Shown: piece after piece, positions 10,467 through 18,138 of the stretch
Numbering within the stretch: position 1 is the stretch's first letter
Layout of the letters: every line of letters starts with the position of its first letter
DNA from: Verrucomicrobiota bacterium
Lineage (GTDB): Bacteria; Verrucomicrobiota; Verrucomicrobiia; Opitutales; Cerasicoccaceae
NCBI GenBank assembly: GCA_039818205.1
Contig: JBCBUK010000017.1
Coordinates: forward strand, 13,048-77,047
Reading direction: 5' to 3'
DNA: 64,000 bases
The notes under the pieces: model-generated
Database searches by the model: none
What the model was told of the DNA's origin: nothing
What the model saw: only the letters and a program-made list of their open reading frames with translations
Made by a program: the position numbers and the translations under genes

Positions 10467-13400
10467 ATGGATAAGCTACTTGCCGCTAATCGCAGCGAAA
10501 TCGCCGTCCGTATATTCCGCAGTGCGACCGAGTTAGGACTCCGCACAGTTGCAGTTTATGCAGATGAAGACCGTTTCGGAGTCCACCGCTTTAAAGCTGA
10601 CGAGTCTTATCTGGTTGGGGTTGGACGAGGGCCTGTAGCGGCCTACCTGGATATCGAAGGTATCGTCGCACTTGCTAAAGCGAAGGGCGTAAAATACATC
10701 CATCCAGGGTATGGTTTTCTATCGGAGAACGCCAATTTTGCCCGAGCCGTTGGCGATGCTGGGTTGACCTTTGTTGGCCCCCAGCCGGAGATGCTCGAGC
10801 GTATGGGCGACAAAGTCGAAGCCCGTAAAATTGCTGACGAGGCGGGTGTGCCCACCTTGCCGGGAACCAAGGATCCGATTAAGGATTCCAAGAAGGCGAT
10901 CGCCGCAGCGAAGAAGGTCGGGTTTCCACTGATTGTGAAAGCCGCCTTTGGTGGTGGTGGCCGCGGTATGCGGGTCGTAAAGAAAGAAGAAGACTTGATC
11001 CCCATGTTGCAGGAAGCGCAAAACGAAGCGCAGACGGCTTTCGGAAATCCGGCAGTATTTCTTGAGCGCTACGTGGGCCGTGCGAAACACCTTGAGGTTC
11101 AAATTTTAGGCGATAAGCATGGCAATGTGATGCACCTGCATGAGCGGGACTGCTCGGTTCAACGTCGCCACCAGAAAGTGGTGGAAGTCGCGCCATCAAT
11201 CGATCTTCCTGAAGACACGCGCAAAGAATTGTGCGCGGCAGCGGTAAAGATCGCGCAGACCGTAAAATATGAGAATGCTGGGACCGTTGAATTCCTTTAC
11301 GACCTTGATACCGATGAGTGGTTCTTCATTGAAATGAACCCGCGGATTCAAGTGGAGCACACGGTGACTGAAGTCATTACCGGTATCGACATCGTGCGCT
11401 CACAGGTTCTGATCGCTCAAGGTAAGAAATTGACCGATCCGGAGCTTGGACTGCCAGCCCAGGATGAGGTGCCTCGCAATGGTTACGCCATGCAGGCCCG
11501 GATTACCACCGAGGATCCGGAAAAGAATTTCGCTCCGGACTACGGTAAGATCGTAAACTATCGATCGGCCGCTGGTTTCGGTATTCGCTTGGACGGCGCG
11601 ATGGGCGACACCGGTTCAGTCATCACTCCGTTTTACGATTCGCTTTTGGTAAAGCTCACCGCATCGGCTTCGAATTTCGATGTCGCATGCCAACGGATGC
11701 GTCGCGCCTTGCAGGAGATGCGAATCCGTGGAGTGAAGACGAATATTCCGTTTATTGAGAACGTGATTAGCCACCCGGAATTCGTATCGGGAATGGCGAC
11801 CACGACCATGATTGACCGCTCTCCTGAGCTGTTTGAGTTTAAGGCGCGTCGTGACCGTGCGACCAAGTTGTTGAATCTGCTTGGCGATACCATCGTCAAT
11901 GGTAATGAGCAGGTCAAAGGACGCCCCGTCCCGAAGATGGACCTGCCGGTGATTCGACCAGAGTATGACGGCAAAGCTGACATCCCAAAAGGAACAAGGG
12001 ACTACCTGCTCAAACATGGTGCGAAGAAGTTTGCCGAGTGGACAATGAAGCAGAAGCGTCTGCTGATAACCGACACGACTTTCCGCGACGCCCACCAAAG
12101 CCTTTTGGCCGCCCGTGTGCGGACCTATGATATGCTTCAGGTCGCAGATGCGATGGCCCACCGGGCACCCGAATTATTCTCGATGGAAATGTGGGGTGGG
12201 GCGACCTTTGATACCTCGATGCGCTTCTTGAAGGAGGGGCCTTACAAACGCCTGCGCAAATTGCGTGAGCGCATTCCTAATATCTGTTTCCAGATGCTTT
12301 TCCGCGGATCAAATGCGGTTGGCTATTCGACATATCCAGACAATGTCATCAAGGGCTTCATCAAGCATTCTGCCGAGGCTGGCATGGATATTTTCCGAAT
12401 CTTTGATTCGCTGAATTACCTGCCGAACTTGAAGGTCGCGATGGAAACAGTTGCCTCTGACACTCATGCGGTCTGTGAGGGAACCTTGTGCTATACCGGG
12501 AACATCATGGACCCAAAGCGCGACAAGTATGACCTGAAATACTACGTCGATCTTGCCAAGGAACTCGAGAAGATGGGCGCGCACATGATCGCCATCAAGG
12601 ACATGTCGGGACTGTGTCATCCATTGGCCGCGGAGAAGCTGGTTAAGACCTTAAAGCAAGAAGTAGGCATTCCAATTCACTTCCACACGCATGATTCCAG
12701 CGGCATTGCAAGTGCCTCCGTTCTCAAAGCTGCGGAAGCTGGTGTCGACGTGGTCGACCTTGCGATTTCTTCGCTCTCTGGCCTGACGGCACAGCCTAAT
12801 TTGAATTCTATCGTTTACTCATTGGCGGGATCGTCGCGAGACACCAAGCTCGATCAAGGCTTCCTTGATGAGTTGTCCATTTACTGGGAAGCGGTGCGCC
12901 AATATTATGGACCCTTTGATACTTCGCCAAAGTTTGGCAGCGCGGAGGTCTATCAGCATGAGATGCCGGGAGGGCAATACACGAACCTGCGCGAGCAGGC
13001 TGCTTCGCTGGGGCTGGGTTCGCGTTGGCCCGAGGTGGTTCGCTACTATGAAGAGGTCAATCAGCTCTTTGGCGACATCGTCAAGGTAACGCCAAGTTCA
13101 AAGGTTGTCGGTGATATGGCGATGTTCCTCCTGACCCGCGGCATCGAGCCGTCTGATTTGGTTAACTTGGAACCCGGTAGCCAGCCATTCCCGGCATCGG
13201 TTATCGATATGCTTTCCGGCGGTTTGGGACAACCCAAGGGCGGTTGGCCTAAGAAGGTCCAGAAGGTGGTGCTAGGGGATCAAAAAGCCCGTAAGGGTCG
13301 CCCAGGTAGCTACGCCGAGAAAATTGACTTAGACAAGACCCTGAAAGCGGTCAAAAAGATCCGCGGGCCTGAGGCGGATACCGATGATCTTTACAGCTAC

Positions 13401-13907
13401 CTGATGTATCCCGAGGTCTACAAACAGCTGGTTGATTATTTACAGGAGTTTGGTCACGCTCGCGTATTACCAACGCCGGCATTCTTTTATGGATTGAAAA
13501 CGGGCCAAGAGATTTCGGTTGAGATCGAAGAAGGTAAAACGCTCTTTGTTAAGTTGATTTATGTGGGTGAGCCGAATGAAGAGGGCGTGCGCACCTTGAC
13601 CTTCGAACTTAATGGCCGCCCGCGTGAAACCGTCGTTCGCGATAAGTCAGTGGCATCCGAGGCGGCCAGTCGCCAGCAAGCCGATCCATCCGATACCAAA
13701 CAGATCGGTGCGCCGATTCCAGCAATGATTAGCAGTGTGTCCGCAACGGTGGGGCACAAGGTCAAGAAGGGAGACAAACTCGTCGTCCTTGAGGCAATGA
13801 AAATGCAAAGCACAATCTATGCACCGTGTGCCGGCGTTATCGATGAAGTGACCGTGAAATCGGGTGATCGTGTTGAGGCCAAAGACCTTTTGGTCCGATT
13901 ACGTTAA
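10467..13907 (+). CDS. pyc: Pyruvate carboxylase
   Basis: Biotin carboxylase (ANRSEIAVR, HPGYGFLSEN, ERDCSVQRRHQK), carboxyltransferase (DTTFRDAHQSL), biotin carrier (EAMKM); 1146 aa. Confidence 0.98.
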   Translation: MDKLLAANRSEIAVRIFRSATELGLRTVAVYADEDRFGVHRFKADESYLVGVGRGPVAAYLDIEGIVALAKAKGVKYIHPGYGFLSENANFARAVGDAGLTFVGPQPEMLERMGDKVEARKIADEAGVPTLPGTKDPIKDSKKAIAAAKKVGFPLIVKAAFGGGGRGMRVVKKEEDLIPMLQEAQNEAQTAFGNPAVFLERYVGRAKHLEVQILGDKHGNVMHLHERDCSVQRRHQKVVEVAPSIDLPEDTRKELCAAAVKIAQTVKYENAGTVEFLYDLDTDEWFFIEMNPRIQVEHTVTEVITGIDIVRSQVLIAQGKKLTDPELGLPAQDEVPRNGYAMQARITTEDPEKNFAPDYGKIVNYRSAAGFGIRLDGAMGDTGSVITPFYDSLLVKLTASASNFDVACQRMRRALQEMRIRGVKTNIPFIENVISHPEFVSGMATTTMIDRSPELFEFKARRDRATKLLNLLGDTIVNGNEQVKGRPVPKMDLPVIRPEYDGKADIPKGTRDYLLKHGAKKFAEWTMKQKRLLITDTTFRDAHQSLLAARVRTYDMLQVADAMAHRAPELFSMEMWGGATFDTSMRFLKEGPYKRLRKLRERIPNICFQMLFRGSNAVGYSTYPDNVIKGFIKHSAEAGMDIFRIFDSLNYLPNLKVAMETVASDTHAVCEGTLCYTGNIMDPKRDKYDLKYYVDLAKELEKMGAHMIAIKDMSGLCHPLAAEKLVKTLKQEVGIPIHFHTHDSSGIASASVLKAAEAGVDVVDLAISSLSGLTAQPNLNSIVYSLAGSSRDTKLDQGFLDELSIYWEAVRQYYGPFDTSPKFGSAEVYQHEMPGGQYTNLREQAASLGLGSRWPEVVRYYEEVNQLFGDIVKVTPSSKVVGDMAMFLLTRGIEPSDLVNLEPGSQPFPASVIDMLSGGLGQPKGGWPKKVQKVVLGDQKARKGRPGSYAEKIDLDKTLKAVKKIRGPEADTDDLYSYLMYPEVYKQLVDYLQEFGHARVLPTPAFFYGLKTGQEISVEIEEGKTLFVKLIYVGEPNEEGVRTLTFELNGRPRETVVRDKSVASEAASRQQADPSDTKQIGAPIPAMISSVSATVGHKVKKGDKLVVLEAMKMQSTIYAPCAGVIDEVTVKSGDRVEAKDLLVRLR

Positions 13908-13936
13908 TATCACGTTTCTCTAACTAGGTATTTACG

Positions 13937-13969
13937 AAAGCTGGTGGGTATAGACCCCACCAGCTTTTT
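13937..13969 (+). terminator. Rho-independent terminator after pyc
   Basis: aaagctggtggg-tatagac-cccaccagcttttt. Confidence 0.85.
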
Positions 13970-14034: not shown

Positions 14035-14050
14035 ATGACGGCTTTGTCAT
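14035..14050. promoter_or_regulatory. CusR/HprR/CopR-type inverted repeat ATGAC-N6-GTCAT
   Basis: ATGACGGCTTTGTCAT lies ~85 nt upstream of the peroxidase ATG, with the same arms and spacer as the E. coli CusR box core ATGACAATTTTGTCAT; a CusR-like regulator is encoded 2 kb downstream. Confidence 0.65.
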
Positions 14051-14132
14051 ATAAACGAATACCACCTGTTCATGTTGTTGGTGATAAACCTATAGAATCT
14101 GAACCCTTGTGGTTACTCTAACGCAAAACACA

Positions 14133-15881
14133 ATGAACAAAAACTCTATCAAGATTATCCTGTTATCAGTGGGTGTTTCACTACTGGTAAGCAGCAATGC
14201 CTCTGCCCAAAGGCAGGGCGATCAGCGTGATCGCTCTTCACGTGATCGATCGGGCTCTTCGCGCGAGCAATCGCGACCATCTCAAGAGGGCAACCTCGGG
14301 ACGGCAGTTTTCCCGGAAGAATACCGATCAATTGACGGTACGGGAAACAACATCGAAGAACCGATCTGGGGAAGTGCTCAAGATGCATTCTTGCGTCTGT
14401 TCGATGAAGACTACGCCGATGGAATTGAGGCGCCAAGTGGAGGCGATCGACCCAGCCCACGTGCGATCAGCAACGCGGTGGTGGCCCAAGATGGCGACAC
14501 ACCAAACTCAGCCAATGCCACTGACTACCTTTGGCAGTGGGGCCAGTTTCTCGATCACGACATTACCGAGACCCCGATTGTCGATCCACTCGAACCGTTG
14601 AATATTGCGGTGCCAGCTGGCGATCCATGGTTTGATCCATTTAATACGGGCGCGGTAGAAATTGCGCTCAATCGATCGTTTTACGTTTATGACAACGATG
14701 GTGTGCGCCAGCAGGTGAATCAAATCACCGCCTTTATTGATGCATCGAATGTCTATGGTTCCGACCATGAACGCGCCGAAGATCTGCGCGCGAATGACGG
14801 CTCCGGTCGTCTTCGGGTGAGCGAGGGCGATTATCTGCCCTATAACATCAATGAGCTTGAAAATGCGCCTTCACATGATCCCAACTTCTATATCGCCGGT
14901 GATTTTAGGGCGAATGAGCAGGTTGGTTTGATTGCGATGCATACTTTGTTTGTCCGTGAGCACAACTACTGGGCAGACCGTTTCCGGAGCCAAAACCCTG
15001 ATGCCGATGGCGATACGATCTATGAGATGGCCCGTGCTGTGGTCGCAGCAGAAATGCAGGTTATAACCTATCGCGAATTCTTGCCGATCGTTATTGGTCG
15101 CAACGCTATTCCGCGCTATGAAGGATACGATCCAAGCGTGGATCCGGGGATAGCGAACGCATTCGCGACGGCCGCCTATCGTTTCGGGCATACGATGTTG
15201 TCCACCGAGCTCCTACGCATCGACGAGAATGGCAACACCATTGCGGAAGGAAATTTGTCCTTGGCTGATGCGTTCTTTAATCCCGACGAATTTGCCGTGG
15301 CAGGTATGGAGCCGATTCTGCGGGGCCTTGGGGCACAGGTCGCCCAAGAGATTGATCCGATGCTAATTGATGATGTGCGGAACTTCCTGTTTGGCCCTCC
15401 AGGAGCGGGCGGATTCGATTTGGCTTCGCTCAACGTTCAGCGTGGTCGCGATCACGGTTTGCCTAGTTACAACGACGCTCGTGAAGCCCTTGGGCTCGGT
15501 CGTGTCGCCGATTTCTCGGAAGTAAGCTCGGACCCGGTTACAGCAGCAAATCTCGCTTCGGTCTACGCAAGCGTCGACGACATCGACCTTTGGATCGGAG
15601 GGTTATCGGAAGACAAGGTTGACGGAGCGCTCGTCGGAGAAACCTGGCAGGCAATCTTAGCCGATCAGTTCCAGCGTCTACGCGATGGTGATCGCTTCTG
15701 GTACGAGGGATACTTGCCGCCAGCATGGGTGGATATGGTCGAAGATCAAACGCTGTCTCGCATTGTTCGTCGGAACACCGAGATTGGACCAGAGTTATCC
15801 GATAATGTATTCGTTATAGAGCCGGAGCGCGACCGTCGCGACCGCGACCGGAATCGTGACGGCCGCCGGGAGCGGCGCTAA
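14133..15881 (+). CDS. Secreted heme peroxidase, peroxidase-cyclooxygenase (animal-type) superfamily
   Basis: Signal peptide MNKNSIKIILLSVGVSLLVSSNASA; YRSIDGTGNN, WGQFLDHD, TAFIDASNVYGS, GDFRANEQ, FGHT, LASLNVQRGRDHG, DQFQRLRDGDRFWYE. The ORF track starts at GTG 14109; ATG 14133 is preferred. Confidence 0.93.
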   Translation: MNKNSIKIILLSVGVSLLVSSNASAQRQGDQRDRSSRDRSGSSREQSRPSQEGNLGTAVFPEEYRSIDGTGNNIEEPIWGSAQDAFLRLFDEDYADGIEAPSGGDRPSPRAISNAVVAQDGDTPNSANATDYLWQWGQFLDHDITETPIVDPLEPLNIAVPAGDPWFDPFNTGAVEIALNRSFYVYDNDGVRQQVNQITAFIDASNVYGSDHERAEDLRANDGSGRLRVSEGDYLPYNINELENAPSHDPNFYIAGDFRANEQVGLIAMHTLFVREHNYWADRFRSQNPDADGDTIYEMARAVVAAEMQVITYREFLPIVIGRNAIPRYEGYDPSVDPGIANAFATAAYRFGHTMLSTELLRIDENGNTIAEGNLSLADAFFNPDEFAVAGMEPILRGLGAQVAQEIDPMLIDDVRNFLFGPPGAGGFDLASLNVQRGRDHGLPSYNDAREALGLGRVADFSEVSSDPVTAANLASVYASVDDIDLWIGGLSEDKVDGALVGETWQAILADQFQRLRDGDRFWYEGYLPPAWVDMVEDQTLSRIVRRNTEIGPELSDNVFVIEPERDRRDRDRNRDGRRERR

Positions 15882-15908
15882 CTTTTGGTATACAGGATAT
15901 TGCGAGAG

Positions 15909-15936
15909 CGCCCGGCAATGCCCGGGCGTTTTTTTT
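15909..15936 (+). terminator. Rho-independent terminator after the peroxidase
   Basis: cgcccgg-caatgc-ccgggcg + tttttttt. Confidence 0.85.
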
Positions 15937-15980
15937 GCAACTTTTTGGTCCCACGTTGGTTAGAACCTTTGTTATTTATC

Positions 15981-16649
15981 ATGAAAGTACTAGCCGTTGA
16001 AGATGAAAGAAAAATTGCCAACTTCATCCGCCAGGGATTGGTTGCTGAAGGGCATAACGTCGAGGTCGCCCATACTGGAAAGGAAGGCCTCTCTCGGGCA
16101 AAGGAGCAGCAATTTGATGCTGTTGTATTGGATATCATGTTGCCGGAGATGGACGGGTTGGAAGTCTTGCGCCAGATGCGCAAAGACGGCCTGAACATGC
16201 CGGTAATATTAGTTACCGCACGCGGCCAAGTCGATGATCGGGTAGATGGGCTCCGGCTGGGAGCAGACGATTATCTCGTGAAACCCTTTTACGTTGAGGA
16301 GTTGGCGGCGCGTCTCTTGGCAGTATGTCGCCGAACCGCGGGTGAGCACCTCAACCTTAGGCAGCATGGCGAATTGACACTCAATCTGGCCACGCGTGAA
16401 GTGCGTTGGCGGGACCAGCAGATCGAGCTGACTTCACGTGAGTTCAATATGCTTGAATATTTTATGCGCTCACCGGGTCGGGTCTATACGCGACCACAGA
16501 TATTGGAGCATGTCTGGCAATACCACTTTGACCCCGGGACGAATCTCGTCGACGTCTACATCAAACGTTTGCGTCGCAAGCTGACGGATGAGGGGGCTCC
16601 GGCGAGCATAGAAACCGTTCGTGGCGTTGGTTATCGTATTGCTGCATGA
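15981..16649 (+). CDS. OmpR-family response regulator, CusR/CzcR-like
   Basis: MKVLAVEDE, LDIMLPEMDG, GADDYLVKPF, TNLVDVYIKRLRRKL, IETVRGVGY; start placed at ATG 15981. Confidence 0.93.
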   Translation: MKVLAVEDERKIANFIRQGLVAEGHNVEVAHTGKEGLSRAKEQQFDAVVLDIMLPEMDGLEVLRQMRKDGLNMPVILVTARGQVDDRVDGLRLGADDYLVKPFYVEELAARLLAVCRRTAGEHLNLRQHGELTLNLATREVRWRDQQIELTSREFNMLEYFMRSPGRVYTRPQILEHVWQYHFDPGTNLVDVYIKRLRRKLTDEGAPASIETVRGVGYRIAA

Positions 16650-16686
16650 GCCGAGCAACTTATCCCGTTAACTCGGAGCAGTGGCA

Positions 16687-18138
16687 ATGATGCGTTGGTT
16701 CGGTTCATTTCGTGCTCGAGTGGCGATCTTTAGCGCGCTGCTGATTTGCCTTATCGTATTTGGCCTGGCGATGTCATTGCGACTCGTGATGCGGGACTTG
16801 TTAGTGACCAGTCTCGACCAACACATCCGCGCGCAAGCGGATCACTATTCAGATGTTCGTCATTTCTTGAGCATCGATCCTTACCAATTGTCGAGCGATC
16901 CCTTGCCGTCGGTTCCATCCGCCGAGATCCCGGTAACATTCCTTGCCTACGATTCCGATGGCGTCTTGCTGTTAAATCGTCGAGTCCCGGCCCATTTATC
17001 ATCCAGTTTGATTTGGGAAGACATCGATCGTGAGCTCGGAACACGGGCCTTCGATGCCTATCGGTGCATTGACTTTGATAGCCCGAAGGGTAGCTGGCGC
17101 TTTGTGATTAGTCGGGATGGCGAAACAACCTTTGTCTGGGGGCGCCCGCAGCGAACGGTGGAGCTTGCTATGGGCAAGCTGGATCGTGCCTTTTGGTTCC
17201 TGCTTCCACTAGCGCTTATAACGGCAGCTTGGGGTGGGTGGGAGATCGGTCGTCGGACGCTGCGCCCAGTCTCGAACTTGGCTAAGCAGATGCGTGAGAT
17301 CGATGCCGCTGGTCTTGATAAACGTCTCGATGAGTCGGGGGCTGCGATGGAGATTCGAGAGCTTATCCGAAACCACAATCGCATGCTCGACCGCTTGGAA
17401 CGTCAGTTCCACCAGGCGTCACGGTTTAGTGGCGATGCGGCACATGAGCTCAACACGCCATTGACCGTCATGCAAAGTGAGGTCGAAGCCCGCTTACGCT
17501 CCGAGGATGCTTCGCCCTCCGACCTGCGCTTGTGCGAAAGTATTTTGACCGAGATTATGCGCCTGAAATCGATGGCGCAAAAGCTATTACTCCTGGCCCA
17601 GAGCGACACTGGTAATCTTTCGACGTCATTGGTTCGATTCGATTTCGCAACACTCGTTGAAGACCTCTGGGAAGATATTCCCTTGATTAAGCCGGACCTG
17701 ATCTGTGAATCCGATTTGATCTGGGATGTCTACATTGATGCGGATCCCGATTTGCTTCGACTCCTTGTTCAGAATCTTCTGACGAATGCGATTCGATACT
17801 GTCGACCAGATGGCTCCGTTAAAGTCGTGCTGAGGGTTATCGCTGGCTACGCGGAGCTTACGGTTTCCAATACTGCCGATCCAATCCCTGAACCGCAATC
17901 AGTCTACCTTTTTGATCGTTTCTATCGGACGGAAGAGGCGCGTGCGAATGCCGACGGTAGTGGGTTGGGGCTCAGTCTCGCCCAAGAAATTGCAGTTGCC
18001 CATCAAGGTGATCTGACGCTTTGCCGAAATGATTCCGGAGTGGTGGCGTTTCGGTATCGTCATCCCGTGGTGCCAAAGCCTAGATACAACGAACGACGAT
18101 CGCTTTCGCTTCCGGAGGTGGGATGTTCCAACCACTGA
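16687..18138 (+). CDS. Sensor histidine kinase (two TM helices, HAMP, HisKA, HATPase), heavy-metal-sensor-like
   Basis: AAHELNTPL H-box, NLLTNAIRY, LFDRFYR, GSGLGLS; directly after the regulator. Confidence 0.92.
   Translation: MMRWFGSFRARVAIFSALLICLIVFGLAMSLRLVMRDLLVTSLDQHIRAQADHYSDVRHFLSIDPYQLSSDPLPSVPSAEIPVTFLAYDSDGVLLLNRRVPAHLSSSLIWEDIDRELGTRAFDAYRCIDFDSPKGSWRFVISRDGETTFVWGRPQRTVELAMGKLDRAFWFLLPLALITAAWGGWEIGRRTLRPVSNLAKQMREIDAAGLDKRLDESGAAMEIRELIRNHNRMLDRLERQFHQASRFSGDAAHELNTPLTVMQSEVEARLRSEDASPSDLRLCESILTEIMRLKSMAQKLLLLAQSDTGNLSTSLVRFDFATLVEDLWEDIPLIKPDLICESDLIWDVYIDADPDLLRLLVQNLLTNAIRYCRPDGSVKVVLRVIAGYAELTVSNTADPIPEPQSVYLFDRFYRTEEARANADGSGLGLSLAQEIAVAHQGDLTLCRNDSGVVAFRYRHPVVPKPRYNERRSLSLPEVGCSNH

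Follow-up and report, generated by a model that had tools for sequence, protein, structure and literature searches.

A conserved candidate regulatory cassette in Verrucomicrobiota: a CusR/HprR-type box before an exported haem peroxidase gene and its adjoining two-component system

In Escherichia coli, the two-component system CusRS controls the cusCFBA genes for an RND efflux pump through a palindromic box, and the related system HprRS (YedWV / HypVW), with its targets hiuH-msrPQ, handles periplasmic oxidant chemistry. CopRS of Pseudomonas aeruginosa belongs to the same regulator/kinase family, and the CopR regulon consists of copper-homeostasis genes. Many bacteria encode active haem peroxidases of the animal type, but next to nothing has been described of what these enzymes do in the cell or how they are regulated, and the accounts of CyanoPOX and RbMPO that we consulted are confined to enzymology (CyanoPOX: PMC11776367). 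Here we analyse a 64-kb stretch from the genome of a marine member of the Verrucomicrobiota (contig JBCBUK010000017.1; hereafter the window) in which a box of the CusR/HprR type precedes a gene for an exported haem peroxidase, and genes for a response regulator and a sensor kinase follow on the same strand. Sequence comparison suggests that the three genes form a regulatory cassette in which the regulator switches on the peroxidase through the box, a reading to which we assign a probability of roughly 0.78. Its principal parts are as follows.

14035..14050, + strand: CusR/HprR-type palindromic box ATGACGGCTTTGTCAT, the proposed regulator site (sequence, conservation, top rank in a matrix scan)
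14068..14073, + strand: GTTCAT, counterpart of a TGTCAT element of relatives, 17 nt past the box (4/6 match)
14133..15881, + strand: exported lactoperoxidase-like haem peroxidase, 582 aa (PF03098, predicted signal peptide)
15981..16649, + strand: response regulator of 222 aa, OmpR family, CusR/CopR/HprR branch (Pfam, NCBIfam)
16681..18138, + strand: membrane sensor histidine kinase (Pfam, NCBIfam; start uncertain, GTG 16681 or ATG 16687)

The locus resembles E. coli CusRS in having an OmpR-family regulator with a similar recognition helix, a box of the type that in E. coli lies between regulator and target (ATGACAATTTTGTCAT, read directly from the cusR-cusC intergenic region of MG1655), and a kinase of the layout TM-sensor-TM-HAMP-HisKA-HATPase (TM, transmembrane segment), which CusS shares. 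It differs in that the output is an exported haem peroxidase instead of an RND efflux pump, that the His42/Phe43/His176 site for Cu(I) is missing from the kinase, and that the target, divergent in E. coli, lies upstream on the same strand with a terminator in between; a third half-site, moreover, stands 5 nt past the box in E. coli and 17 nt past it in the verrucomicrobial promoters. HprR is a sister regulator with 38% identity to that of the window, and the MG1655 hprR-hiuH box, likewise read directly, is ATTACAAAATTGTAAT, an ATTACA-N4-TGTAAT variant; the HprRS output repairs oxidised methionine, whereas the output here would make or consume oxidants. CopRS has a short periplasmic sensor of similar length, but the His41/Phe42/His140 copper site of CopS is absent here (PMC7763554). 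The peroxidase itself is closest to CyanoPOX/LspPOX, enzymes without a described regulatory context.

A first-pass annotation of this DNA had pointed to an ATGAC-N6-GTCAT palindrome before the peroxidase gene and had assigned it to the E. coli CusR/HprR type. The palindrome is present at 14035-14050, with perfect 5-nt arms and a 6-nt spacer, approximately 98 nt 5' of the peroxidase start codon, and it matches the cusC box as read from MG1655. No other exact match occurs in the 64 kb of the window; the palindrome lies in the 225-nt intergenic region on the carboxylase side of the peroxidase gene, where an exact copy would be expected by chance with a probability of about 2e-4 by simple arithmetic. 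Genome-wide, the exact 10-base pattern occurs 11 times in 4.85 Mb, against about 4 copies expected from base composition, and nine of the 11 are intragenic. The pattern alone is thus no rarer than chance, and the case rests on context and conservation.

To place the locus in a wider context, we scanned one genome per species and obtained 316 loci encoding relatives of the peroxidase, of which 80, all from genomes other than that of the window, were inspected. A regulator of this type and a kinase adjoin the peroxidase gene in 20 of the 80 (Verrucomicrobiales, Akkermansiaceae and Opitutaceae metagenome-assembled genomes, MAGs), so that the synteny sought by the first-pass annotation exists outside the window. 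These regulators share 51-58% identity with the window's and score 242-270 bits against it, compared with 95-176 bits for generic OmpR-type neighbours. The order is peroxidase-regulator-kinase in 16 loci and divergent in four, and no gene other than these three is conserved over the 20. The closest relatives had suggested a unique, accidental arrangement, a view that the wider 80-locus scan overturned.

The box accompanies the regulator. Wherever a locus with an adjacent regulator could be evaluated (19/19), ATKACA-N4-TGTMAT was found 5' of the peroxidase gene; in 18 of these it takes the form ATGAC-N6-GTCAT with at most one mismatch, and the remaining locus has ATTACAACTCTGTAAT. The ATTACA-N4-TGTAAT variant was seen in two peroxidase loci, L043 and L052. 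Among loci without such a regulator, the box occurs in five of 58 (Fisher p = 8e-14, kinship not corrected). The box-positive loci among the 58 include two short contigs, a MAG that carries the cassette at a second peroxidase gene, and a genome with a box-associated kinase elsewhere. In a tree of the peroxidases, an 18-member clade (support 99) is box-positive throughout, and the box also occurs in at least four other lineages; the window enzyme groups with its two family-mates beside this clade. Exact boxes number 1-6 per genome of 4.4-7 Mb in the relatives, and two of these genomes have no exact box besides that of the peroxidase. The complete 5.3-Mb chromosome of one relative contains two, one before the peroxidase gene and one before a YHYH gene.

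The window's own family provides a natural experiment whose sequences agree with this association. Its two family-mates with a peroxidase (67% and 59% identity) have unrelated neighbours, no adjoining two-component system and no box, and they also have no regulator orthologue (best match 42-44%), so that loss of the regulator parallels loss of the box. The peroxidase was not found in five genus-mates. As a separate observation, the gene 3' of the peroxidase in one of the family-mates (G008, L015 6295-6837) encodes a MerC-family membrane protein.

An independent matrix gave the same answer for the genome as a whole. It comprised 46 columns built from 29 promoters of other genomes only, and both strands, 9.7 million positions, were scanned. 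The site at window position 14035 on the + strand, in the orientation of the peroxidase gene, ranked first with 21.2 bits (mean -63, sd 14.7); rank 2 fell to the only other intergenic exact box of this genome, discussed below.

Alignment of 30 verrucomicrobial promoters, whose consensus is aaaATGACAnnTtTGTCAT, revealed a second element. TGTCAT(t)T stands exactly 17 nt past the palindrome, with positions +34 to +39 carrying 1.0-1.6 bits each, and it had played no part in site selection. In most relatives the start codon follows about 20-30 nt past the TGTCAT element, with GGAGG in between. The hexamer may represent a third half-site or, alternatively, a promoter element resembling a -10. As a -10 it would place the palindrome at about -45 to -30, where OmpR/PhoB-type activators sit when they replace a -35 contact.

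Every box was in fact seen to have a third, TGTCAT-like half-site beside it, on the strand of the box. The spacing is 17 nt in the verrucomicrobial peroxidase and YHYH promoters (14068-14073 in the window; +34 to +39 in L046-L095 and L123-L128; 5535-5540 in L120; ~3898-3903 in L121), 5 nt in E. coli cusC (TGTCAC) and hiuH (TGTAAG), and 10 nt at position 17135 of contig C12.

The regulator belongs to the expected family, with matches to Response_reg (PF00072, 6.4e-30) and Trans_reg_C (PF00486, 7.6e-29). The first-pass annotation had called it CusR-like, and this description is borne out by its best NCBIfam model, TIGR01387, and by 43% identity to E. coli CusR. Its recognition helix reads TNLVDVYIKRLR, compared with TNAIDVAVKRLR in CusR and TNTVDVAIRRLR in HprR, and the 20 peroxidase-linked regulators have essentially the same helix, TNLVDVYI(K/Q)RLR. 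Only six OmpR-family regulators are encoded in the genome, and the window's is the nearest match to CusR. CusR and HprR are annotated in MG1655 as activators, and we infer that the regulator here would likewise bind its box and activate.

Linkage to a two-component system is not confined to this regulator class. Two further, unrelated OmpR-type classes adjoin peroxidase homologues divergently, in Haloferula/Akkermansiaceae and in Planctomycetota (L047, L070, L074, L077, L084, L098, L116 and L041, L042, L044, L061). Their recognition helix differs and a CusR-type box is lacking; it seems that this peroxidase family became linked to envelope sensors on more than one occasion.

The output of the cassette is well defined at the protein level. 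The gene product matches An_peroxidase (PF03098, E=1.8e-161) over profile positions 1-530 of 530, that is, at full length, and its translated N-terminus is a Sec-type signal peptide, MNKNSIKIILLSVGVSLLVSSNASA/Q; the secreted heme peroxidase of the first-pass annotation was therefore correctly recognised. The nearest solved structure is CyanoPOX (PDB 8S6C, E=1.2e-166 over residues 64-563). The motifs WQWGQFLDHD, GDFRANEQ and YRFGHTML recur at the aligned positions of 8S6C, and conservation extends to all catalytic residues: distal Gln-His, catalytic Arg, proximal His, and Asp/Glu where the haem esters would form. CyanoPOX is a bacterial lactoperoxidase that oxidises iodide best (PMC11776367), and its haem is non-covalent although Asp and Glu are present. 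The window enzyme would oxidise iodide, bromide, thiocyanate or phenolics with H2O2 outside the cytoplasm. A Sec signal peptide and R/D-rich tails set the window protein apart from CyanoPOX/LspPOX. These tails of the mature protein are Arg/Asp/Ser-rich and of low complexity (14208-14300, QRQGDQRDRSSRDRSGSSREQSRPSQ...; 15822-15878, ...ERDRRDRDRNRDGRRERR), and the orthologue of a family-mate has similar ones.

The kinase contains HAMP, HisKA and HATPase_c domains and two hydrophobic segments around a periplasmic stretch of ~135 aa, at approximately residues 37-170. Its earlier designation as CusS-like therefore holds for the domain layout and for the best model, TIGR01386, but not for the sensor, whose residues are unlike those of CusS. 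At the dimer interface of CusS/CopS, Cu(I) is liganded by the invariant His42, Phe43 and His176 (PMC7763554). The corresponding residues are Leu, Leu and Val in the window kinase, and the ligands are absent in all 21 related kinases; the sensor region aligns poorly, and what carries this result is that no conserved His occurs in the vicinity. In HprS, HOCl sensing depends on Met72 and Met153 of the periplasmic domain (bioRxiv 10.1101/2021.09.09.459708). Met72 corresponds to a gap here and Met153 to Ala, next to a Met that is not kept in genus-mates, and the periplasmic domain has no conserved His, Met or Cys across four genus orthologues. By the Cu(I)-ligand and HprS-Met residue tests, the kinase does not qualify as a canonical member of the copper- or HOCl-sensing classes. 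The metal- or oxidant-inducible module of the first-pass annotation is consequently not established, the kinase having neither the CusS/CopS nor the HprS sensing residues. A peroxide- or halogen-type envelope oxidant, or a cue associated with one, is a tentative candidate for the signal; something else is just as conceivable, and copper or silver is rather doubtful.

Two features of the sensor may be recorded here. With CusS the sensor shares only a WR motif, which precedes the second membrane segment. The peroxidase-linked kinases of Verrucomicrobiales (L048-L095) carry long Pro/Gly/Lys/Glu-rich low-complexity periplasmic insertions, which are missing in the short sensor of this genus.

The remaining features of the locus bear on its boundaries and on the expression of the two-component genes.

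10467-13907: pyruvate carboxylase open reading frame, the upstream neighbour (CPSase/PYC_OADA/biotin domains)
13936..13968, + strand: intrinsic terminator of the pyruvate carboxylase gene, 13-bp stem and T-run, the 5' limit of the module
14093..14098, + strand: TAGAAT, candidate -10 (sequence; not kept in relatives)
15908..15936, + strand: intrinsic terminator or attenuating hairpin in the gap between peroxidase and regulator genes (fold energy, T8)
15936..15942, + strand: TGCAACT, candidate promoter element of the two-component operon (common to three genus-mates)

A scan with the sigma-70 consensus gave no convincing full promoter 5' of the peroxidase gene on the + strand. The TAGAAT element that had been noted as -10-like is present at 14093 but is not conserved in relatives. 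The terminator reported after the peroxidase gene is supported by folding: 15908-15936 forms an 8-bp GC-rich hairpin followed by T8, with a predicted energy of -22.8 kcal/mol (z = -3.4), and the peroxidase-regulator gaps of relatives (68-174 nt) hold comparable hairpins. TGCAACT lies 35-48 nt 5' of the regulator start codon both here and in three genus-mates (L037, L038, L039) whose flanks are otherwise unrelated, and its sequence may represent a promoter element of the two-component operon itself. The terminator, together with the TGCAACT shared by the genus-mates, suggests that a separate promoter drives most of the expression of the two-component genes. An autoregulation box was not found 5' of the regulator gene in this genome or in the three genus-mates, where the best candidate has 4 mismatches.

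The regulon was then considered beyond the peroxidase. No box with fewer than 3 mismatches was found within 400 nt 5' of CusA/CusB-like RND operons, a CopA-like ATPase or a multicopper oxidase, and a copper link through the regulon was rejected, no box standing at the RND, CopA or multicopper-oxidase genes. Homologues of msrP, msrQ and hiuH are absent from the window's genome. In five Verrucomicrobiales genomes (L123, L124, L126, L127, L128), a second box-N17-TGTCAT stands directly 5' of a gene for a secreted YHYH protein (PF14240) of ~350 aa with Pro/Gly-rich tails, and judging by its promoter this gene appears to be co-regulated with the peroxidase there. A three-His metal site has been predicted for the YHYH family (bioRxiv 10.64898/2026.10.18.759936). 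The YHYH homologue of the window's genome (C9:60690) directly follows nadB and has no box, which rules out a YHYH arm of the regulon in this genome.

The other intergenic exact box of the genome, ATGACAGAATTGTCAT, lies at C12:17135-17150 (L008 1501-1516). It is a perfect consensus match with a TGTCAT 10 nt away, and it has on one side the divergent gene for a secreted repeat protein of 1194 aa, in which a MAM-like domain is weakly matched, and on the other a gene for a Gfo/Idh/MocA oxidoreductase. Assignment of the box to the oxidoreductase is disfavoured, the orthologues in five relatives having no box; it more likely serves the secreted repeat protein, or is non-functional. This site is a possible second target of the regulator.

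We propose the following sequence of events. The membrane kinase would sense a periplasmic cue through a sensor domain unlike the known copper and HOCl sensors and would phosphorylate the CusR-like response regulator. A dimer of the phosphorylated regulator would then bind ATGACGGCTTTGTCAT, probably helped by GTTCAT 17 nt downstream, and activate transcription of the peroxidase gene. The two-component genes themselves would be largely insulated from this transcription by the terminator and probably have their own promoter.

Several points weigh against this proposal. The regulator scores 218.3 bits with TIGR01387, below the cut-off of 279.2, although this is still the best of 98 NCBIfam models; the kinase reaches 207 bits with TIGR01386 against a cut-off of 292.55, and the match spans residues 160-453, leaving the sensor outside. 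The window site is also an atypical member of its class: it scores 21 bits where most training sites reach 35-55, its box departs from the consensus (ATGACGG, not ATGACAn), its downstream element GTTCAT matches the consensus at only 4/6 positions, and 98 nt separate the box from the start codon, compared with ~50-60 nt in the main clade. The loci compared are phylogenetically related, and the counts given above overstate the number of independent observations. Finally, three genus-mates keep the regulator (81-84%) and the kinase (56-63%) without any peroxidase, in a different neighbourhood that is conserved among them. The system therefore has, or had, other targets.

The alternatives must be judged against the same evidence. 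The system could be a genuine, if distant, CusRS/CopRS copper or silver sensor, with the peroxidase, and YHYH in relatives, as a copper-stress output, for example by removing H2O2 against copper-catalysed radicals in the envelope. Both the regulator and the kinase find their best NCBIfam models among the heavy-metal subfamilies, the box is the same as that of cusC, which responds to copper, metal binding has been predicted for YHYH proteins (bioRxiv 10.64898/2026.10.18.759936), and a study of E. coli reports that CusR, acting at the HprR box, turns on periplasmic oxidant-repair genes in response to copper (PMC9302797). However, both proteins fall under the subfamily cut-offs, the Cu(I) ligands are missing from the window kinase as well as from all 21 related ones, and the RND, CopA-like ATPase and multicopper oxidase genes have no box, and we regard a copper sensor as unlikely. 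It is more improbable still that the box is a repression operator, or is bound by another protein while the two-component system is a mere neighbour. With TGTCAT as the -10, a protein at about -45 to -30 could block the promoter as readily as replace the -35 contact, and the genus-mates that keep the two-component system without a peroxidase would suit such a neighbour; but the box tracks the regulator (19/19 vs 5/58), is lost where the regulator is lost, and faces a recognition helix close to those of CusR and HprR, box-binding activators in E. coli, in a genome with no other CusR-like regulator.

A chance palindrome in an accidental gene order would account for a 10-base pattern that occurs 11 times in the genome, mostly within genes. 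It would leave unexplained why box, spacing, second element and gene order are conserved over at least five peroxidase lineages, and why an independent matrix places this very site first in the genome, and we consider it extremely improbable. The cassette reading, in which the regulator would activate the peroxidase gene through the box, also admits a more specific and speculative form that we think improbable as it stands: a Verrucomicrobiota-specific, sensor-triggered extracytoplasmic oxidant system, in which a new sensor for something other than metal has come to connect a CusR-type regulator to a hypohalite-producing enzyme (and to a YHYH metalloprotein in relatives), with a biotic trigger, for instance a competitor or the oxidative burst of an alga. 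If true, it would be a bacterial counterpart of the inducible innate-immune haloperoxidase response, as opposed to detoxification or metal resistance.

Our literature search, whose full-text coverage excluded most subscription journals, turned up no account of an animal-type haem peroxidase under the control of either a two-component system or a CusR/CopR-type box. The first-pass annotation had likewise known of none; the arrangement is nevertheless not unique to this locus but a conserved cassette. The regulator-operator pair is already known, and what is new is the output and the sensor, in a cassette that is conserved. A CusR/CopR/HprR regulator and its box have thus stayed almost unchanged from Proteobacteria to Verrucomicrobiota while sensor and output were exchanged. 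This is of use for regulon prediction and for annotation, where the name 'heavy metal sensor/regulator' is misleading here, and the YHYH family PF14240, which has no characterised function, gains a first functional association. For the bacterial animal-type haem peroxidases, the cassette with its defined box offers a first experimental handle on their role: the signal of the kinase would tell when cells deploy the enzyme.

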